Below are positions 7,100 to 48,645 of a DNA stretch of 64,000 nt, one piece after another. Under the pieces are notes generated by a model. It was given only the letters and a program-made list of their open reading frames with translations, did no database searches and had not been told where the DNA came from. The stretch lies in assembly GCF_000372725.1 (NCBI RefSeq), contig NW_005201192.1, positions 124,001 through 188,000 of the forward strand, given 5' to 3'. Every line of letters begins with the position of its first letter. Within the stretch, counting starts at the first letter, position 1. Position numbers and translations under genes: made by a program. Source of the DNA: Emiliania huxleyi CCMP1516. Taxonomy: Eukaryota.

Positions 7100-7495
7100 A
7101 AGCCGCGAGAACAAGGGACCGGCAGGCGGCGGCGTCGCAGGACGAGGCAGAAGAGAACGACGCGACAGAGGAGGAAGTGACAAGGGAGAGACCGACGAGA
7201 GTGGGACGGCCGCGAGGTGGCATGAAGGTTGCAGCGAGAAGCGGCGAGAGACTGCGAAAAGAGATACGAAGAGGCAGACTCCCCAGGGTGGGCGACGGCT
7301 AGCGCACCACACTCCTCTCCTTAAAATCCCTGTGTGGTGGCGGCGTGCCGTTCTCCCATCCCTCCCTTGGGTTGTGTGTTTTCTTTCTTTCTTTCTGCAC
7401 TCCAAGTCCGCTCCAAGTGCCAGTTCAGGTGGAATTCCGAATTTTCGCATCGTGGGATTTCCATCCCTCCCTTGGGTTGTTTTTCTTTCTTTCTT
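7100..7495 (+). mobile_element. Retroposon (LINE/SINE-like) 3' fragment, family A, with (TTTC)n tail and duplicated tail
   Basis: Near-identical to the reverse complement of 28250-28481 and 29384-29500, and to 41671-41722; the copies share one end at the (TTTC)n tail and differ at the 5' end. Confidence 0.7.
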
Positions 7496-16400: not shown

Positions 16401-16584
16401 GCGCAAGCGCTTGGAGCAAGAGAACTGCCACGTATCGGTCTCATACTAGCACCCCACCTCGCGAGCCGACGTTCTGGCTCAGCGAGGTTGCTGCGGAGCA
16501 CTCGCCGGGTCTTTTTTCTTTTTGCTCTTCCGGTACACTTCCCAAGACTGACTGAGACTGACTGTACACTTCCCAAGGCTGCGC

Positions 16585-17280: not shown

Positions 17281-17447
17281 CGCCTATTCAGAATAATTCT
17301 TTTCTTGCCAGTGGTGGAACAGCTCGCCACTCGAAGCCACACCCAACCTTTTGCGCTCACTGTAGTGCGCGTCGGGCTTGAGGTTCGATACCGAGTTTTG
17401 GCTACGACGGCCCGCAGCGGAACAGGGCAATCCGAGCTACACGCACG

Positions 17448-18668
17448 ATGCTGCGACTTCCCGCAGCCATCCTGCTCGCCCTCACCCCAGCGAGGGCGAC
17501 CCGCCTCCGGCTCGTCAGCTTCAACATCCACGGTTGGCGCGATGCGGACCACACAGACAGGCTCAGCGACCTCATCAAAGCCATCGCAGCCCTTCGGCCC
17601 GACGTGGTCTGCCTGAACGAGGTGCTCTTCCCGTTTGTCGGCCCGCCCAAAGAGGATCCCTACTGGGAGGCTGTGCGCGAGCGGCGCGGCTACCTCCACG
17701 TGCCGCCGGCCGGGAGCAGGCCAGACGAGCGGGACGAAGACAACTATCTGCGGCGGCTCGCTGCCGCGCTGGGCCTGCCGCACATTTGCTTCGGGGCGGC
17801 TGTCGGCACCGACCCAGAGCCGCGCCCGTTTGCGCGCTGCTTCTTTGCGCAGTACCCCTTCGGCAACGCCATCCTCTCGCGCTTCCCTCTCTCCGATGTG
17901 CGTCACTCGCTGCTCTCCGTGTCTCCCGCCGACCTGACGTGCGGCGACCAGCCTCGCACAGACAGCGACTTGGAGCACCGCGCCCTCACCACGGCCCGGC
18001 TGCGGCTGCCGGGAGGCGGGAGCCTCGGCGTCGCTGTCACGCACCTCGACCACAAGGCGGAGGCTCTAACCTTACCCTAACCCTAACCATAACCCTAACC
18101 CTAACCCATACCCTAACCTCGACCACAAGGCGGAGGCTCTGCGAGAGCGGCAGGTCGCCGCCGCCGTCGAGCGATGCGCTGGCGCGTTTGGGTCGCTGCC
18201 GCATGTCCTGTGCGGCGACCTCAACTCTTTCAGCAGGGGAGACATGAGCGCGCGGCAGTGGAGTGAGATCTGCGCGCTGTACGAGAGCCGCGGCTGGGGT
18301 GAGTGAATCGCCATCTCTCGCCCATCTCTCGCCTCTCCCCTCACCGTCTCCCTGCTCGCCGTCTTACTGCTCCTCTCGTCTCACCGTCACGCGGCCGCCC
18401 GGTAGGCTCGCCGCGGCCCGACTCGCTGGTGCGAGCCGTCCTGCACGCCGCCGGCTACTGCGACAGCTTCGGGGCCATCCTCCGACCTGCTGTCCTTCCA
18501 AACGTGCTGCCTCCCCCGACCTGCTGGACGAACACTCGGCTCGACTACGTGCTCCTCTCGCAGGTGGCGGCGGCCGGGGCGGTGCGGGTGACGGCCCACA
18601 AGACGGTGCGGGACTGTGACGTGTCGGACCACTTCCCTGTCTTATGCGAGATTGACATATCGAGATAG
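17448..18668 (+). CDS. Endonuclease/exonuclease/phosphatase (EEP) family protein with signal peptide; exons 17448-18056, 18130-18298, 18406-18668
   Basis: SFNIH, DVVCLNEV, GNAILSRFP, THLD, GDLN, RLDY and SDHFPV motifs; frame restored by two introns. Confidence 0.88.
18066..18118 (+). repeat. Interstitial telomeric repeat (CCCTAA)n, about 8 degenerate units
   Basis: ctaaccttaccctaaccctaaccataaccctaaccctaacccataccctaacc. Confidence 0.9.
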
Positions 18669-18982
18669 ACCCGGTATTCACTCTCCTCGAGCGCAAGGAC
18701 GCGGGGAGCTTCACGCGGAGTTGTCGGAGCTTCGCGCAAAGGTCAAGGACCTGGAGGCCAAGAAGCTCAAGGAGTGAACGCCTTCATCTCAAGGATTAGG
18801 ACATAGTGTTAGTGACTGTCCGTTGTCGGTTATACGGTGTATGTGGGAGTCCCCACTCCCATTATTGAGACGACGCTTTTGTCTTCGAATCTTGACTAAC
18901 AGCTTTCGTGAAGGATGGATTGAAAAACATTCGAACAAAGAAGAGGCGACGGGAGGAACCGGCAGAGGATGCAGTGACGTGA

Positions 18983-21378: not shown

Positions 21379-21465
21379 TTATCCATTGCGCATTGGAATA
21401 TGTGGCTCTTACGAACATACCCATTCAGCTAAAAGTTCACAGTATGACTGTTCTTTTCCAGTGAG

Positions 21466-21585
21466 CAGTGTATGTGGCTCTTACGAACATACCCGTAGGT
21501 GGACTGCTGAGTGCTGACGGGGTTGCGATGAGGAGCGACACCGAAGGGTTTCTCGCTCGGGGTTAGTGCACCACTAACCGCCGAA
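21466..21585 (+). repeat. Family E element, copy 3 (head also duplicated at 21399-21422)
   Basis: Same sequence and same 3' end (CACTAACCGCCGAA) as copy 2. Confidence 0.85.
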
Positions 21586-24538: not shown

Positions 24539-26440
24539 TCAGCCCTCTTCGTCGCCTACGTAGTCGCGCAGCACGAGCGAGACGTGCGGCTTCCTCAGCT
24601 TGCTCAGCGCAGCGAAGAGCACATTTTTCACCCGGTGGAAGGAGAGGCCGAGCGCCTCGCCCACCTCCTTGACCGCCATCGTCTCGCCGCTGCCGCCGAG
24701 ACCGAAGCGCATCTGCACCACCTTCGCCTCCTCCTCGGTGAGGTAACGCGTCATCACGCTCTGCAGGTCGCGCTGCAGCATCGACTGCACCATCTCCGCC
24801 TGCGCCGTCTCGGCGCGCTCGTCGGGCAGGAAATCGCCCACCGTGAGGTCGTCGCCCGACGGAGCGTCGAGCGAGGTTGCCCGCCGGTTGACGAGCTCGA
24901 CCACCTGGCGCACCTTGGCAGGGGGAGGGGCGCGCAGAGGTGTGAGGCGGCGCGCGGGGGGGGGAGGGGAGCCACACTCCTCCGCCGCCGCGCCTTTGCG
25001 GCCGAGATGTCGCCCACGAGCGCCGCCACCTCCTCGTCGGTCGGGTTGAAAGCGGCGCCGGCGCGCAGCTCCTCCTTGGCGCGCACGATCTTTGCGTAGA
25101 CGGTCTGTACGCGCGAGGGCAAGCGGATGGTGCGGCTCTGCTCGCGGATGGTCCGGGTGAGCGCGTTGCGGATCCAGTAGGTAGCCTGTGCGGGGCCCAA
25201 GGGCAGCGGTCGGGAGGAGGGGGAGTGGGCCGTGGCGGGGCGAGGAGGAGAGGGGTTGCATAGGTTGAGAAGCGGAGTCCGAGGGAGACGTCGAACTTCT
25301 CGGCGGCCTTGATGAGGGAGATGGACCCCTCCTGCATCAGGTCCTGCGGCCGGTGCGGTGGCGAGATGTGGGGAGATGTGGGGAGATGTGGGGAGATGTG
25401 GGGAGATGTGGGGAGATGGACCCCTCCTGCGGCCGGTGCGCGGTGGCGAGGTTGGCGGTGGCGAAGCGGCGTCCGTCGGGCGCACGGCGCGAGGGGGGGC
25501 GAGGGGGGCGCGAGGGGGCGGGGGGTGGCGGAGGGGGGAGGCGGCCGAGGGAGGGGGAGGGAGGAGTGTGGGCCACCTGCTCCGTCGTCCCGTGGTCGAT
25601 CCGCCCGCCGCCGCTCCGCTGCAGCGCGCGGATCGCGCTGCGCACCAGACCGGCGTTGCTCGTGATGAGGCGCGCCTCCGCCTCCCGGCCGAGGTCGACC
25701 GCCTCCTGCAGCTCCTCTGGCGACAGGCCCGCCGCCCTCGCCCAAGCCGCCTGATGCCGCGCCGCCGCCACCTCCACGCCGCCTCCGCTCCGCCGCTCTC
25801 CTGCGCCGCCCGCCCGGCTGTGGAGCGACTCCGCCGCCGGCGCCGGCGCCGCCACGGCACCTCGCGTCGCCACGCCAACGGCGACGCCTTCGCTCGAGAG
25901 CGAGAGGCCTCCTCCTCCGCCGCCGCCTCCGCCACCGCCCCCTCCCTGCCGCGAGCCGTGCAGCTCCCCGCCGCCGCTCCACGACACGGGCCACTCGGCG
26001 GCCGCGGCCTGGGCGGACGCCTCGGCGTGGAGCACGTCGCCACGCACCGCCTCGAGCTGGCGCAGCCGCTGCACGCGCTGGCAGAGCTGGATCTCCTCCG
26101 CGTGCTCGAGCAGCCTCGCGCGGCTGGTGCTCGCCACAAAGCCGGTCAGCGCGCTGGGTCGCTTTTGCCCCGTCGGGCGGCGGCGAGGGCGGCCGCGGCC
26201 TCCACGGCCTCGCCCGCCACCGCCGCGTCTCCCGGTGGACGCCCCGCTGCCGCGAGCCGTCCTCTGGCTGTCGGCTGGGGCCGCTGCTCCCGGCGCTGCC
26301 GGTCCTCGGAGGATTACGCACGGCACCCGCCAGCGCCTAGCGACCGCCGCGGGAGCGCCGGTCAGCCCGGGCCGCTGCACTGGAGCGAAGGCCGAACCGG
26401 CTCCGAGGCTGAGCAGGAGGAGGACGGCGGCGGGAGGCAT
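24539..26440 (-). CDS. Nucleus-encoded plastid sigma-70-type RNA polymerase sigma factor, at least 3 introns
   Basis: Bipartite leader (GSAFAP); LLEHAEE, LITSNAGLV, DLMQEGSISLIKAAEKFD..GLRFSTYATYWIR, QSRTIRLP, MRFGL..VGEALG..ALSKLR. Confidence 0.92.
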
Positions 26441-32971: not shown

Positions 32972-33446
32972 TCTGCAGCGCAAACTTTTTTCTTTGAGCT
33001 TAGCCTTCGGTGTTATGAAACAACGCAAGGCGGACATGGCATATCGCTCTCGGGCCCACAGACATCCCGCACACTCGCCGCACACCCGCCGCCCCCGCGC
33101 GCGCCCCACCCCGGCCGGGAGAAAGGGGAGTGACAGTTTGGGATGGCAACAGCCCGAGTATGTTGAGTCCTGGCTCAACAACGCAGATAACAAGAGGGGG
33201 TGGTCCGGCTCACAGGTCCGGCTCACGCGCCTCGAGCTGACCCTCTACCGCACTGGTCACTTCCGCCCCCTCGCTCCCAACCCATCCACCCCGCCCCGGG
33301 CCGCGCCGCGCGATCTCGGGCGATCTCGCGCCATCTCGGGGCCGCGCCGCGCGATCTCGCACAATCTCTTTTTGTAAGATTCTTTTCGCCTAGCAAACGG
33401 CCAGCCAATTTGACGGGTGTTGCTGCCGCCGTTGCCGCCGCGCGCA

Positions 33447-37172: not shown

Positions 37173-39145
37173 CATAGCGGGTGGGCAAGCCCTAAAACGG
37201 CGGGAGGGGTAGGGCTATATCGATAGAGCTAGAGGGCTCAACCACCCCTCCACCCCTCCACCCTCCACCCCTCCACCCTCCCGGAGCGAGAGGGGTCCGT
37301 CCTCGAGCCCTCCCACTTCCACCCCTCCGACCGGAGGGCTCGCCAGCCCACAGGGCTGGAGGGGTCCCCGTCGGATCGGCGTCGGGAGGGCTCCACAGGG
37401 TCCCATAGGGCTAGCGCGCTGGGAGGGTGGAGCGGTCCACCGGGGAGAGGGGTCAGGAGGGCTGGGCGAGGCGGGAGGGGTGGTGGGGTCCAGGAGGGCT
37501 CGCCGCCCCCCCGAGCTCGGGTGATAGGCAAGAGGGCTCGGGCGCCGGGTGGGCTCGGAGGGACGGTCGGACAAAGGGAGGATCTTCGTGGCGGGAGGGC
37601 TCGAGAGGGGTCGGAAGGGCCTCCGGGAGGGGTCGCAAAAAAAGAATGGCGCGGAGCTTCCGAGAGTGCCCGCCACGAGAGGGCTAGAGGGGTCGGAGGG
37701 GTTTAGAGGGCTGGAGGGCTGCAGGCCTGCTGCCGCCCATGGACGCGGGTCAACCGGCGACGGCGCCCGTGATCGAGGGACCGGCGACGGCGAATGAGCT
37801 GGTCTCTGCGCCGCACGACTTCACCCACGTTCGCGACTGTGGCCATCCAACAGTCTGCCGGCGCGGCGGGCGCATTCGAATGCGCCGGCCGCGCCGGCAG
37901 ACTGCCAGTCCGGGCGGGCCTGCTGCGGCAGGGCGCTGCAACGCCGCCGCCTCGCCGCCACAGCAGCGCCGCCCCCGCATGGCTGCCGCCAGCAATGTCG
38001 CCGCCAGCCGCCGCCCCCAGCCGCCGCCGCCAGCTGCCGCCAGCACTGCAGCGACAGCTCTCTCTGCTGCCCAGGCGCCGCCGCGGCCACGAGTGTCACC
38101 GCCACGAGTGCCGCCGCCGTCAGCGTCGCCATGGCCGCTGCCGCCGCCAGGCGGGCGAGCGAGGAGCTCCATATGAGTGTGTGTCTGGAGGCTGTGGCGC
38201 TTCCGTTTTAGCGGAAACCCCAGGTATTTCGAATACCAAACGCGCTTCGTGTTTGCCTTGAGGAGCGCAGCGACGAGTCCGTAAGGAGCGGCCCCAGCTT
38301 GCTGGGTGCGGCGCCGCCGCGCGCCGTATCGAGAGACTCCGTCGGGGCAGGTTAAAATCGCGCCGCAGGCTGCCCGCACCCCGGGCCGTCCGCGCACAGA
38401 CACCACGGAAACGCCTCATGATGTGTATTGCACCACTTCCGTATGCCTGCAGGTATCTTTAACCGAGCCCTCCGAGCCCTCCACACCCCTCCACACCCCT
38501 CCGACCCCTCCGACCCCTCCGACCCCTCCGACCCCTCCGACCCCTCCGACCCCTCCGACCCCCTCCACACCCCTCCGCGAGCCCTCCAGGCCCCCCGAGC
38601 CCTCCGACCCCTCCGACCCCTCCGACCCCTCCGAGCCCTCCGAGCCCCCCGAGCCCGGCTCGGTGGCTCGCCCCTCCGAGCCCTCCGGGCACTCCATCCC
38701 TCATGAGCCCTCCCGAGCCCTCCCGAGCCCTCCAGCGCCACCCTCGTGCCTCTCTGCCCTCCGAGCCCTCCGAGCCCTCCGAGCTCTCCACCCCTCCCGA
38801 GCCCCACCCCTCGCGCTAGGGACCCTCTTGCCGGACGACACCCTCCGAGCCCTCCAAGCCCCCCGAGCCCTCCAGACCCCTCCAGACCCCTCCATCCGCA
38901 CAGCCCCTCCGGCCCCTCTAGCCCCCTCCGACCCCTCCAGCCCTCTCTAGCCCACTGGACCCCTCCTACGCCTCGCTTTTGGCCAGCCCTCCAAGCCCCC
39001 ACCCCTCCTGGGCCCTGCCGCCTGACACCTCTATCGGTGGAGGGCTTTAGGTCACGGTCCACACTCCCGCCCTCCCGACCCCTCCACACCCCTACAGCGG
39101 CACCCCTACCCCTCCCGCCGTTTTAGGGCTTGCCCACCCGCACTC
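37173..39145. mobile_element. Non-autonomous TIR DNA transposon (~1.97 kb), hAT-like
   Basis: GCGGGTGGGCAAGCCCTAAAACGGCGGGAGGGGTAGGG is perfectly inverted at 37177-37214 and 39104-39141; (C)ATCCTCTC is duplicated on both flanks; inverted CCCTCCGA subterminal arrays. Confidence 0.92.
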
Positions 39146-45308: not shown

Positions 45309-47855
45309 CTACCGGCAGGATCGCGGAAAGCTCAGGGAACGTTCGCGGCCAGCCTGAAACCCGATGCCCGTCGCTGCCGCCGCCGCCGCCTCCGCCTGAG
45401 CGGCCTCGCGCTGCGCTGCCTCCTTGGCGCGGTGCTCCTGCGAGGCGCGGAGAGTCGCGAGGCTTGCATCGAGACACCGCGTCCCGGCCCCTCCCCTTCT
45501 CTTCCGGCGCGCGAGGCGCTCTCGATCGTCTGCCGCGGCCGCGCGCGTCCCTCTGCCGCACTCTCGGCCGCACAGACTTACCGCGTCTCTCTGCCGCACT
45601 CTCTGCCGCACTCTCTGCCGCACTCTCTGGGATGCCTCGCCTTGAGCAGCCTCCGCTCCGCCTCCTCGCGCAGCTGCGTCGGCGACTTCGGCCGGAGCGC
45701 CTCGATCTGCGGCGTCGTGCCGAGCAAGTGGTTCGGCAGCGACTGCGCAGGCTCGTCCTCGAAGCAGCGGCTCTCGTGGGACCCCTCAAAATGCCTTCGG
45801 GAGGGCGGAGACAAGGCTCCGAAGAGGGTCCGAGAGAGGATAGCGGCTCTCGCGGTGCGTGTCGGACTGCCTCGCCCACTCCTCCACCTCGAGGCTCGAC
45901 GAGGAGAGCCCCTTGCCCAGCGTCAGCCAGCCGCGCCGCAAGTTGTGGTCCTCGCCTACGGCCGTTCACAGCACACTCACTCACTGAGGAGCTCGAGTGG
46001 TCGAGTGAGGAAGCAGCCAAGCTGGTCGTCGCCTACGGGCGCAGGTCAGGACTCGGCGCACCGCTGCCGTCCCAGGGCAGGGCAGTGCGAGATATGGGAG
46101 GTATGGGGAGATATGCACCGCTGCCGTCCCAGGGCAGGGCAGTGCGAGATGCGAGCCAAGGGGAAGCGCAAGCGAGGGGGGAGGCGCAAGACGAGGAGAG
46201 GTGCCAAGGCGAGGGGGAGGCGCAGGCGAGGGGGTTCGGTGCAGGGGAAATGGGGGGGGGGAGGGGGGAGAGGGGCGGTGTGAGAAGGGGGCGGCGTCGC
46301 CGAAGAGCTCGAGCCGCCGCCGGCCATTGGAGAAGTGCTCGATGATGGCGTAGAGCTCGGTCGGCTTCTCGGTGGAGCCGTACGGCGGCTCCTAGACTTG
46401 AGCTGGCTCGTCGTCACCCGTTAGAGCGGCCCCCCTCTCGGTGGACCCGCAAGGGGAGCTCCTACGGAGGAAAGCTCCGAGAGGCTTCCGGGGAGCCTCG
46501 CGGCGGCGGCTCCGCCGAGGTGGTTGGCGGCGGCGCCTCGCTCAGCATCACGTGAGATATGGGGAGATATGGGGAGATACGAGGAGATATGGGGAGATAT
46601 GCGGAGATATGCGGAGATATGGGGAGATATGCGGCGCCTCGCTCAGCATCACGTCCGTGTCGACATTAGCGTGGATGATGTGCCTGACAGGGAGGTCGAG
46701 TCGACTCAACCGAGCTGCATGGGTGGGCGCCTGCCGACTCCGGGCTGATTGAGCTCGCTGAGCTGAATGTAGCGAGGGCGTGTGTGTCTGCCGGCGCCCG
46801 GGGGAGAGTGGGCGGCGGGGCGCGGGGAGGGTGCGGGTGCAGGGGGAGGGTGTGGGTGCGCGTGTCGGTGCGCCCGTCGTAGTTGCGGCGGACGGTGCCC
46901 TTGATGCCGACGAGGCAGTGCTCCTGCAGGGAGAGAAGGGAGGGGGAGGAGGGGAAGGGAGAAAAGGGAGAGGGAGAGAGGGGCGGGGTGAGGGCGGGCG
47001 AGGAGACGGGCGGCGGAAGAGGGCGGGCGGCGGAAGAGGGCGGGCGGGGGCGTGGCAGGCTCGCCGTGGTCGGCGTGACGACCGAGTCGGGCAGGAAGTG
47101 CGTGTTGCGGCCGGTCGCGCGGTTCGACTTGACCCACGAGATGTCTTCACACCTGCCGACCCAGGAGATGTCTGAGATGTCACACCTGCAGGCTTGGCCC
47201 ACAGGATGTCTTCACACCTGCCGACAGGTGCAAGGCGCAGTGCTCAGCGGTGCGTGACTGCCCGGCACGGCCTCGCGGGGTGAGAGAGGCGCTCGCGCCG
47301 GCGGAAGCCCCATTTGCGCAGGCAGGCGCGACCCCACTGCAAGGAGACGCCCGAGCCGCTCCAGAGGAAGCAGAACGAGGGCGTCTCGGTGATGGCCTCG
47401 ATCCGCAGGTTCATCACCTCCTGCGGAGTCCACACCTCGTCTTCGTCGCCCTCCATGAGCGCGCCCGCGGCCGCCTTGCGGCGCCGGTACTCCTCCCACG
47501 GCGGGTCGATCAGCACGACGTCAAACTTCGTGCCCAGCTCCGTGAGGTCGAAGGTTCGCAGGTCGACCTGCCGGCACGCCGGCGGCGTCGCCCGCTCGGC
47601 GATGAGCGCGTCCTTGAGGTCGACCAGCTCCTTGAGCTTCGGGTACTCCTGAAAGCGCTCCTCGACATCCGAGTCGCGAATGAAGTTTGCTGGCCTCAAG
47701 CCGGTGTCGACAAAGTGCTGAGCGTAGTCGTTCTTGGCCCGATCAAAGCGTCCGCCCCACCTCCCGCCTCCGCGGCCGCCTTTGCCGCGACCGCGACCGT
47801 AGGGCCCTGGCCTCGAGGAGGAGCCGTGCCCTTGTCGAGGAGACGGACCGCTCAT
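45309..47855 (-). CDS. METTL14: m6A methyltransferase non-catalytic subunit METTL14 (MT-A70), multi-exon; 3' end approximate
   Basis: NDYAQHFVDTGLRPANFIRD, FQEYPKLKEL, DPPWEEY, KWGFRR/CEDISWVK, EHCLVGIKGTVRR, IHANVDTDV, KPTELYAIIEHF..GRRRLELFG. Confidence 0.92.
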
Positions 47856-48010: not shown

Positions 48011-48645
48011 CATAGCGGGTCAGCAAGCCCTAAAACGGCGGGAGGGGTAGGGCTATATCGATAGAGCTAGAGGGCTCAACCACCCCTCCACCCCTCCACC
48101 CTCCACCCCTCCACCCTCCCGGAGCGAGAGGGGTCCGTCCTCGAGCCCTCCCACTTCCACCCCTCCGACCGGAGGGCTCGCCAGCCCACAGGGCTGGAGG
48201 GGTCCCCGTCGGATCGGCGTCGGGAGGGCTCCACAGGGTCCCATAGGGCTAGCGCGCTGGGAGGGTGGAGCGGTCCACCGGGGAGAGGGGTCAGGAGGGC
48301 TGGGCGAGGCGGGAGGGGTTGTGGGGTCCAGGAGGGCTCGCCGCCCCCCCGAGCTCGGGTGATAGGCAAGAGGGCTCGGGCGCCGGGAGGGCTCGGAGGG
48401 ACGGTCGGACAAAGGGAGGATCTTCGTGGCGGGAGGGCTCGAGAGGGGTCGGAAGGGCCTCCGGGAGGGGTCGCAAAAAAAGAATGGCGCGGATCTTCCG
48501 AGAGTGCCCGCCACGAGGCCGAGAGGGCTAGAGGGGTGTGTAGGGCTGGAGGGCTGCAGGCCTGCTGAATCCGCCCATGGACGAGGATCAACCGGTGACG
48601 GCGCCCGTGATCGAGGGACTGGGGACGGCGAATGAGCTGGTCTCT
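48011..48645 (+). mobile_element. Left end of a second copy of the 37173-39145 TIR element; no right end seen in the window
   Basis: Begins CATAGCGGGT; about 630 bp highly similar to 37173-37807. Confidence 0.9.

Follow-up and report, generated by a model that had tools for sequence, protein, structure and literature searches.

Several described routes of intron gain and of telomeric insertion share parts of the arrangement found at the locus reported here. The new introns of Daphnia pulex attributed to break repair (PMC4202315; reviewed in PMC3443670) are likewise bounded by a direct repeat of the adjacent exon, and parallel gains near one site are described. The repeats reported there are 4-12 bp long and the inserted DNA is mostly of no known source (PMC4202315), whereas at the present locus a 25-bp repeat supplies both splice sites and the filler is telomeric. 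Neither paper contains the string "telomer" in its main text. Tandem genomic duplication of an exon segment carrying AGGT, as outlined in PMC3443670, likewise turns a proto-splice site into both a donor and an acceptor and leaves the protein unchanged; in contrast, foreign filler makes up two thirds of the intron described here, at a site that reads AG|GC rather than AG|GT. Introners and transposon-derived introns, as presented in PMC3443670 and PMC6726248, also arise by an insertion with a target-site duplication and are precisely spliced. They differ from the present intron, which shows no terminal inverted repeat or element body and exhibits a duplication far beyond a few bases.

The short interstitial telomeric sequences of mammals are likewise short telomeric tracts at a repair site with in-register microhomology, and the subclass with duplications makes up 4.6% of the rodent and 16% of the primate loci (PMC2246262). 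In the available portion of that source they are not described as introns, whereas the insert reported here lies in a coding sequence and is very likely removed from RNA. Breaks with 3' overhangs are reported to give rise to tandem duplications through CST-Pol alpha-primase fill-in in human and mouse cells, which is the break geometry proposed here; the abstract of that work features neither telomeric filler nor introns (PMC8355091). Break-repair gain, duplication-driven gain and telomeric insertion with duplication are already known separately, and their combination was not found in the literature searched. An intron of telomeric filler is undescribed in that literature (titles and abstract openings, with few subscription papers), and intronic cases may be included in the supplementary material of PMC2246262 and of PMC13518057 (Fig. 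S5).

The sequence source of new introns is stated to be mostly unknown (PMC4202315). In an endonuclease/exonuclease/phosphatase (EEP) family gene of Emiliania huxleyi, the bases of a whole intron can be traced, there is evidence for its removal from RNA, and the host is a bloom-forming, cultured alga with many sequenced strains, so that repair-driven intron gain becomes testable by genome scans and paired-nick experiments. The evidence argues strongly that this is a new spliced intron formed from a repair scar with telomeric filler, a core that is common to the mechanisms considered most seriously below.

The host gene and the 73-nt insert

The window, which is the whole stretch of DNA analysed (64,000 nt of E. 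huxleyi CCMP1516), encodes the EEP-family (Exo_endo_phos) gene on the forward strand in three exons. Exon 1 (17448..18056) ends in ...THLDHK, matches Pfam PF03372 (E 6.5e-10) and is covered by RNA contigs. It is followed by the 73-nt GC-AG intron (18057..18129 at the preferred junction), which is missing from the RNA contigs of runs X10, X12, X14 and X15. Exon 2 (18130..18298) encodes AEALRERQ...GDLN...RGW, and intron 2 (18299..18405) is a GT-AG intron of 107 nt that contains 11-mer CCATCTCTCGC-type repeats with no flanking duplication. Exon 3 (18406..18668) encodes the RLDY and SDH motifs and the stop codon. Removal of the 73 and 107 nt gives a predicted protein of 346 aa that is identical to the transcript protein P0032. 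This product belongs to the PF03372 family, matching the profile over its whole length (positions 1-225) with 67.3 bits against a cut-off of 24.5 (E 2.1e-18). No solved structural relative of P0032 was found at E values up to 1.

The protein cluster of this gene includes the E. huxleyi CCMP1516 reference model EMIHUDRAFT_201362 (P0034) together with transcript-derived members, a composition that assigns the window to E. huxleyi or its species complex. The reference model lacks 14 residues, THLDHKAEALRERQ, with the conserved HLDH among them, and has a differing C-terminus without the SDH motif. The missing THLDHKAEALRERQ fits a GT-AG call at 18036-18153, so the annotation of EMIHUDRAFT_201362 probably failed to call the 73-nt intron, an example of how gene finders overlook introns of this type.

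Direct sequence comparison identifies an exact 25-mer at 18043-18067 and again at 18116-18140, both on the forward strand, and neither copy can be extended on either side. Among direct repeats within 200 nt, none longer than 14 nt arose in 100 triplet-shuffled versions of the gene region (mean of the longest 9.4), so an exon-sequence direct repeat beyond chance stands at both ends of the insert, as in introns from staggered-break repair. The 48-nt spacer between the copies (18068-18115, forward strand) is of the CCCTAA type and consists of eight hexamers, five perfect and three variant, with 5 mismatches in 48 positions. An earlier note on this DNA, made from the letters alone, had reported the duplication and about 8 CCCTAA units; the duplication stands as described, and the count holds if variants are included and drops to five for perfect units. 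The E. huxleyi telomere repeat is given as TTAGGG (10.1101/2024.05.26.595999), and the spacer is a tract of the host's own telomere repeat, 5 of its 8 units being perfect. No other telomere-type array occurs in the 64-kb window. No non-repeat segment that could represent a telomerase-RNA fragment was identified within the filler, and the insert is composed of duplicated exon and telomere-type filler only, giving every intron base an identifiable source. The insert sequence reads without terminal inverted repeats, element body or poly(A), and thus does not display the hallmarks of an introner or transposon-derived intron. The sense strand of the filler is the C-rich strand and contains neither AG nor GT.

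When the insert is retained, an in-frame TAA at 18078-18080 ends the product after 210 aa, which agrees with the frameshift and stop described in the earlier note. That note also held that removal of the 73 nt restores the frame into GDLN with the catalytic motifs downstream. The restored frame is confirmed, but the last of these motifs additionally require removal of the 107-nt intron at 18299-18405, which the note had left unstated.

There are 26 equivalent ways to cut out 73 nt. Two of them (18057-18129 and 18063-18135) give GC..AG on the sense strand and yield the same mRNA, and none gives GT..AG. The AAG|GC proposed earlier as the GC donor at 18057 and AG acceptor at 18129 is one of these two, and its GY donor and AG acceptor are those of a GC-AG intron. 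The junction at 18057-18129 is likely preferred, on indirect grounds that consist of one record and general splicing rules: its acceptor (18128-18129) is the earliest AG past the filler, and the insert-bearing record P0039 carries an E>D change in copy 1 right after AAG, where the spliced records all keep E. With this junction, copy 1 is exonic for 14 nt and then intronic for 11 nt, with the donor AAG|GCGGAG. The opening 14 nt of copy 2 are intronic, its acceptor reads AAG|GCG, and its leading ACC extends the telomere repeat in register. The insert contains six CTAAC words, in line with the branch-point consensus that the earlier note had seen in the repeats. Candidate branch-point adenines lie at 18098 and 18104 in the filler and at 18116 just past it, which is 31, 25 and 13 nt upstream of the acceptor at 18129.

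The telomeric content bears on whether the 25-mer was simply duplicated in tandem, with slippage later expanding its junction into a hexamer microsatellite. Intron gain through tandem duplication of AGGT-like sites is described as an accepted route (PMC3443670), and the bare duplication junction would read CT-ACC, one base short of a CTAACC unit. A single unit is, however, a poor seed, the array coincides with the telomere repeat of the species, and the 25-nt intermediate would shift the frame while probably being too short for splicing. This origin is accordingly considered highly unlikely.

The metagenome contig L001 is identical to the window over 18000-18200, insert included, and this independent copy rules out an assembly artefact, against which the earlier note had cautioned, as the source of the insert. 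The surroundings exhibit further variation. In the 5' region of the gene (17285-17439), L001 and the sequencing runs X2 and X7 carry a different sequence, and a short high-copy element lies at approximately 17353-17398. At 16533-16577 a 14-bp duplication flanks AGACTGACTG repeats, and L001 lacks window positions 16480-16569, indicating that this region is polymorphic.

RNA and genomic contigs across the insert

Splicing was assessed from assembled contigs of public sequencing runs, with RNA and DNA samples unmatched. Nineteen runs were listed, 15 of which contain the stretch (X16-X19 are nearly devoid of it), and eight were compared. Four are RNA runs from four studies (X10, X12, X14, X15) and four are genomic-looking, of which X1 is guessed to be DNA and X2, X3 and X7 are of unrecorded library type. 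Positions 18062-18120 were masked in this comparison, so the inserts of X2, X3 and X7 are deduced from contig offsets and not read as letters. Zero RNA depth over 18056-18109 was discounted because the repeat is masked there.

Exactly 73 nt are missing from the RNA contigs in all four runs. In each, one contig spans from 18047 to 18121 at consecutive record positions (617/618, 181/182, 194/195 and 689/690), with more than 31 letters on either side. None of the four genomic-looking runs joins across the site; their paired contigs end within the insert, the left ones reaching 48, 42, 11 and 11 letters beyond 18061 and the right ones beginning 29, 43, 10 and 10 letters before 18121. In a word-graph simulation with an assumed word length of 31 letters, an empty allele would be joined and a mix of empty and filled alleles would end at 18067 and 18116; neither pattern is seen. 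The contig ends of X2 fit the spacer of the window, those of X3 and X7 (18072, 18111) are an exact fit to three copies of the 25-mer, and those of X1 fit none of the arrangements considered. Three copies in X3 and X7 would mean that the intron unit occurs twice, separated by an exon of zero length. Assembly collapse was considered as a cause of the RNA joins and rejected, as the 25-bp repeat is shorter than the assumed 31-letter words and the genomic runs do not collapse it.

Intron 2 serves as an internal reference. It is joined in X10, X14 has a loose end with exon-3 letters, and X15 stops short of it. All four genomic-looking runs keep intron 2 and also cross intergenic DNA. The splicing of intron 2 in X10 and the ending of X14 in exon 3 indicate that the RNA contigs derive from processed RNAs. 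Six listed variants are common to X10 (RNA) and X3 (genomic), and the two differ by one 3-nt insertion at 18734. Since the insert is present in DNA and cleanly gone from RNA, it is likely an intron, and taken together the 73 nt are very likely a spliced intron, as judged from contigs of unmatched samples. The precise removal from RNA of a segment that stands in DNA is what a spliceosomal GC-AG intron should display, again at the level of such contigs. The earlier note had asked for a 73-nt junction in RNA and had named retention in transcripts as fatal to its proposal of a self-removing intron made of telomeric filler and a duplication; the junction is found, the RNA contigs of all four runs lack the insert, and none of the genomic-looking runs skips it.

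The protein records give a mixed picture. Fifteen of the 20 cluster members are listed, comprising three that are fully spliced, five with the insert, four without the insert but with intron 2 kept (P0009, P0033, P0036, P0038), one mis-spliced model and two that are uninformative. Six protein records retain the insert (P0037, P0039, P0041, P0042, P0044, P0097). The four insert-less records that keep intron 2 may represent part-spliced RNA, as suggested by P0033, which is a transcript isoform, or empty alleles. They speak for reading the insert as an unspliced, disrupting allele, with RNA contigs that come from strains or alleles never carrying it, and the RNA and DNA samples do differ. Against this, the insert is missing in all four RNA runs and joined across in none of the genomic-looking ones, and no run exhibits the contig ends predicted for an empty/filled mix. 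L001 and the six protein records retain the insert, the more diverged haplotype included, and both flanks of the gene are intact. An unspliced allele is therefore very unlikely. No allele of E. huxleyi or of a sister species is proven empty, with no join in the four genomic-looking runs and four ambiguous protein records.

Age of the intron and its neighbours in related genes

The intron opens with 11 bases identical to those that begin exon 2 and closes with 14 bases identical to the end of exon 1. As both ends are exact exon copies and the rest is filler, there is no room for old sequence and the intron is new in sequence. The intronic and exonic 25-mers are identical at 25 of 25 positions, giving a 95% upper bound of 11% divergence. 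A more diverged haplotype (P0039, P0044) likewise carries the insert, which is therefore older than the split between the haplotypes.

The earlier note had proposed comparing orthologues for an empty site, and the outcome is divided. Six distant relatives on contigs of 8-364 kb (P0007, P0055, P0072, P0086, P0087, P0112) read uninterrupted through HLDH(K/R)xE; their proteins are approximately 47-62% identical, and they are taken here as putative empty genomic sites. In contrast, one distant lineage (P0017, P0109, P0176) exhibits an apparent GT intron directly after HLDHK, at the same position as in E. huxleyi. An old intron at this position in orthologues was among the outcomes that the earlier note had named as refuting, and this lineage goes part of the way towards it. 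Read-through tails in protein records suggest introns near HLDHK in four other lineages at four positions. Besides the one directly after HLDHK, these are an apparent intron inside the K codon (P0011 with P0096), one after RAE, which is possibly the position of the alternative junction (P0134), and one after KAEE (P0048).

An alternative history is that of an ancient intron that kept a conserved position while its content was overwritten later, and the apparent introns right after HLDHK (P0017, P0109, P0176) and after RAE (P0134) speak for it. The exact exon copies at both ends, however, leave no old sequence in the E. huxleyi intron, and the neighbouring apparent introns occupy four different positions. 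P0017 and P0176 are 86% identical and form one lineage. Two trees (the first of 34 rows, six of them trimmed; the second of 40 rows with N-terminal columns only) separate this same-position lineage widely from E. huxleyi and have uninterrupted lineages branching between the two, although many inner forks are weak. Persistence of an old intron is thus given very little credence. The intron of P0017, P0109 and P0176 is instead read as a parallel gain, and the data agree better with recurrent gains at AG|GY sites than with a single old intron. Parallel gains are reported to account for 47.8% of the new introns in Daphnia (PMC4202315).

Telomere-frame peptides are found in four of 251 protein records, two of which (P0003, P0180) look like chance. 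In P0011, a 12-residue duplication flanks a PNPN tract at the apparent exon end and donor, at the protein level; the contigs of P0011 and P0096 are both 3448 nt. In P0075, the exon sequence runs into VRVRVR and then a stop in the G-strand orientation, while most of its cluster mates are full length, and this protein-level pattern suggests a TTAGGG-sense insertion. The two records are hints of telomere-type tracts in this gene in two further lineages. The repeats of P0075 are in the opposite orientation to those of the E. huxleyi insert.

Source of the filler and similar scars in the window

A duplication of 25 bp implies two complementary 3' overhangs. In the proposed mechanism, two nicks approximately 25 bp apart would leave such overhangs, and the minus-strand overhang, ending in GGT, would prime the in-register addition of about 8 TTAGGG units. 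The new end, GGTTAG, would pair by two bases with the terminal CT of the other overhang, and filling of both gaps would duplicate the 25 bp. The duplicated AAG|GC would then provide a GC donor from copy 1 and an AG acceptor from copy 2. The C-rich filler would add branch-point-like CTAAC words and no rival AG, so that splicing would restore the frame exactly, and the allele would survive because the alga routinely uses GC donors. Approximately 55% of E. huxleyi donors are reported to be GC (PMC7779022). In this coding sequence AGGY is present in 18% of 25-mers against 6% for AGGT, so tolerance of GC donors triples the share of 25-bp duplications that carry a splice-ready AG|GY, consistent with the aid that the earlier note had ascribed to it.

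Telomerase acting on a staggered break with 3' overhangs that was then rejoined is put at slightly under an even chance as the source of the filler. At this single locus, 3 nt of the G-strand primer end continue the repeat register; at the opposite end 2 nt do so, displaced by one base. In-register break ends are described as a mark of telomeric insertions at mammalian breaks, and no more than 1.56% of random breaks would be expected to have a register of at least 3 nt (PMC2246262); the break end found here, 3 nt in register at one locus, conforms to this pattern. No local telomeric template is present elsewhere in the 64-kb window. GGTTAG is the release register of vertebrate telomerase, and a G-strand filler would end in this way. 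On the other side, microhomology is expected from any templated copying, the left junction is one base off the register of the main tract, and the filler has 5 mismatches in 48 positions against 0 of 25 in the duplication (p=0.16).

Exact flanking duplications of at least 12 nt are found at 7 of 87 tandem arrays in the window and at none of 250 random intervals (p=6e-5). Among the seven is one simple tandem of two copies; the arrays were grouped after the data had been seen, and in repeat-rich DNA random intervals do not provide a perfect control. The scar of duplication plus filler is carried by four of the five ATCTC-type 10-11-mer arrays in the 64 kb. Two lie on the reverse strand in a METTL14-like gene, whose exon limits are presumed from reading frames and motifs. 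One of these (46530-46654) has an exact 24-bp duplication that flanks 77 nt of repeats of the ATATCTCCCC type and by frame spans an exon end and a GC donor. The other (46058-46150) has a 36-bp duplication with 21 nt of 10-mer-type filler and is apparently intronic. At 25316-25440 (array scar 25342-25440), also on the reverse strand, overlapping 16- and 20-bp duplications surround CCACATCTCC repeats where a gene with weak sigma-70 similarity (below the cut-off) has an acceptor-like site. At 33298-33359, a 21-bp duplication around 10-mer GCGATCTCGG-type units lies upstream of an ORF. As judged from reading frames, the four 10-mer scars lie at existing splice boundaries, within an intron or outside the coding sequence, and the telomeric scar is the only one of the five that is internal to an exon. 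None of the five fillers contains AG on its C-rich strand. Two short peptides from the METTL14 region gave no PDB match.

The same scar with non-telomeric filler suggests that a telomerase-free route exists and hints that such repair operates generally in this genome, and its presence at four of five 10-11-mer arrays makes copying from an array a close rival to telomerase. In that case the same new intron would have arisen from a staggered break, with a repair polymerase using a pre-existing telomeric or interstitial array as the template for the filler, as part of a general route that includes the 10-11-mers. This is a real but tentative possibility. The exact flanking duplication at the single telomeric array as well as at the 10-11-mers and the three variant hexamers in the filler speak for it, and interstitial telomeric tracts are reported to be pervasive in another coccolithophore (PMC13518057). 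The contig ends of X2 also fit a variant tract common to another locus, for which one substitution in any telomere read would suffice. Against it, the excess of variants in the filler is not significant, and the window has no telomeric template, whereas approximately 450 bp separate two of the 10-mer scars, either of which may have served as template for the other. Part of the unit is contained in the duplicated stretch itself in three of the four 10-mer scars, and these may be local expansions.

A third source for the filler would be target-primed reverse transcription by a non-LTR or Penelope-type retroelement, in which only the RNA repeat tail was copied and a target-site duplication was left. 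Elements of both types can bear repeat tails, and the same geometry of a 3' primer end, short microhomology and duplication would be expected, but the insert has no element sequence or poly(A) and this source is improbable.

If the window is typical, the same scar explains some of the intronic 10-11-mers of E. huxleyi and links them to the interstitial telomeric tracts of coccolithophores. Intronic 10-11-bp repeats were reportedly noted by Read et al. in 2013. On a broader and rather speculative reading, which we regard as unlikely, haptophytes would routinely patch breaks with G-rich simple repeats and long duplications, using telomerase and a second template for the 10-11-mers. Such patching would be a main, ongoing source of new introns and of repeat-rich intron interiors, with GC tolerance tripling the exon targets that survive. 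The tally behind this reading is three apparently independent telomere-type tracts in one gene family (E. huxleyi, P0011, P0075) and five scars in one 64-kb window.

Further repeats were observed in the window. On the reverse strand at 47140-47225, an exact 21-bp duplication spans an acceptor-like CAG|GT; its two copies are separated by 44 nt of degenerate copies, and removal of 65 nt gives RCEDISWVKSN. Exact direct repeats of 24 bp (21399-21494) and 20 bp (7356-7480) surround non-repetitive spacers of 48 and 85 nt, respectively. Near-identical blocks at approximately 37190-37620 and 48028-48458 lie 10.8 kb apart and are possibly a dispersed element or a local duplication.

Telomere-pattern scans identified at least 126 loci in viral contigs and at least 123 in prokaryote genome contigs. 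Filtering the listed loci for non-telomeric flanking duplications returned the control L001 and six other loci, none convincing, with at most one 11-bp case (L214); these are non-haptophyte collections and uninformative on frequency. Eight of the loci (L141, L162, L193, L196, L204, L225, L231, L238) belong to one prokaryote-labelled assembly whose megabase contigs contain many internal telomere-type tracts, a pattern suggestive of eukaryotic contamination.
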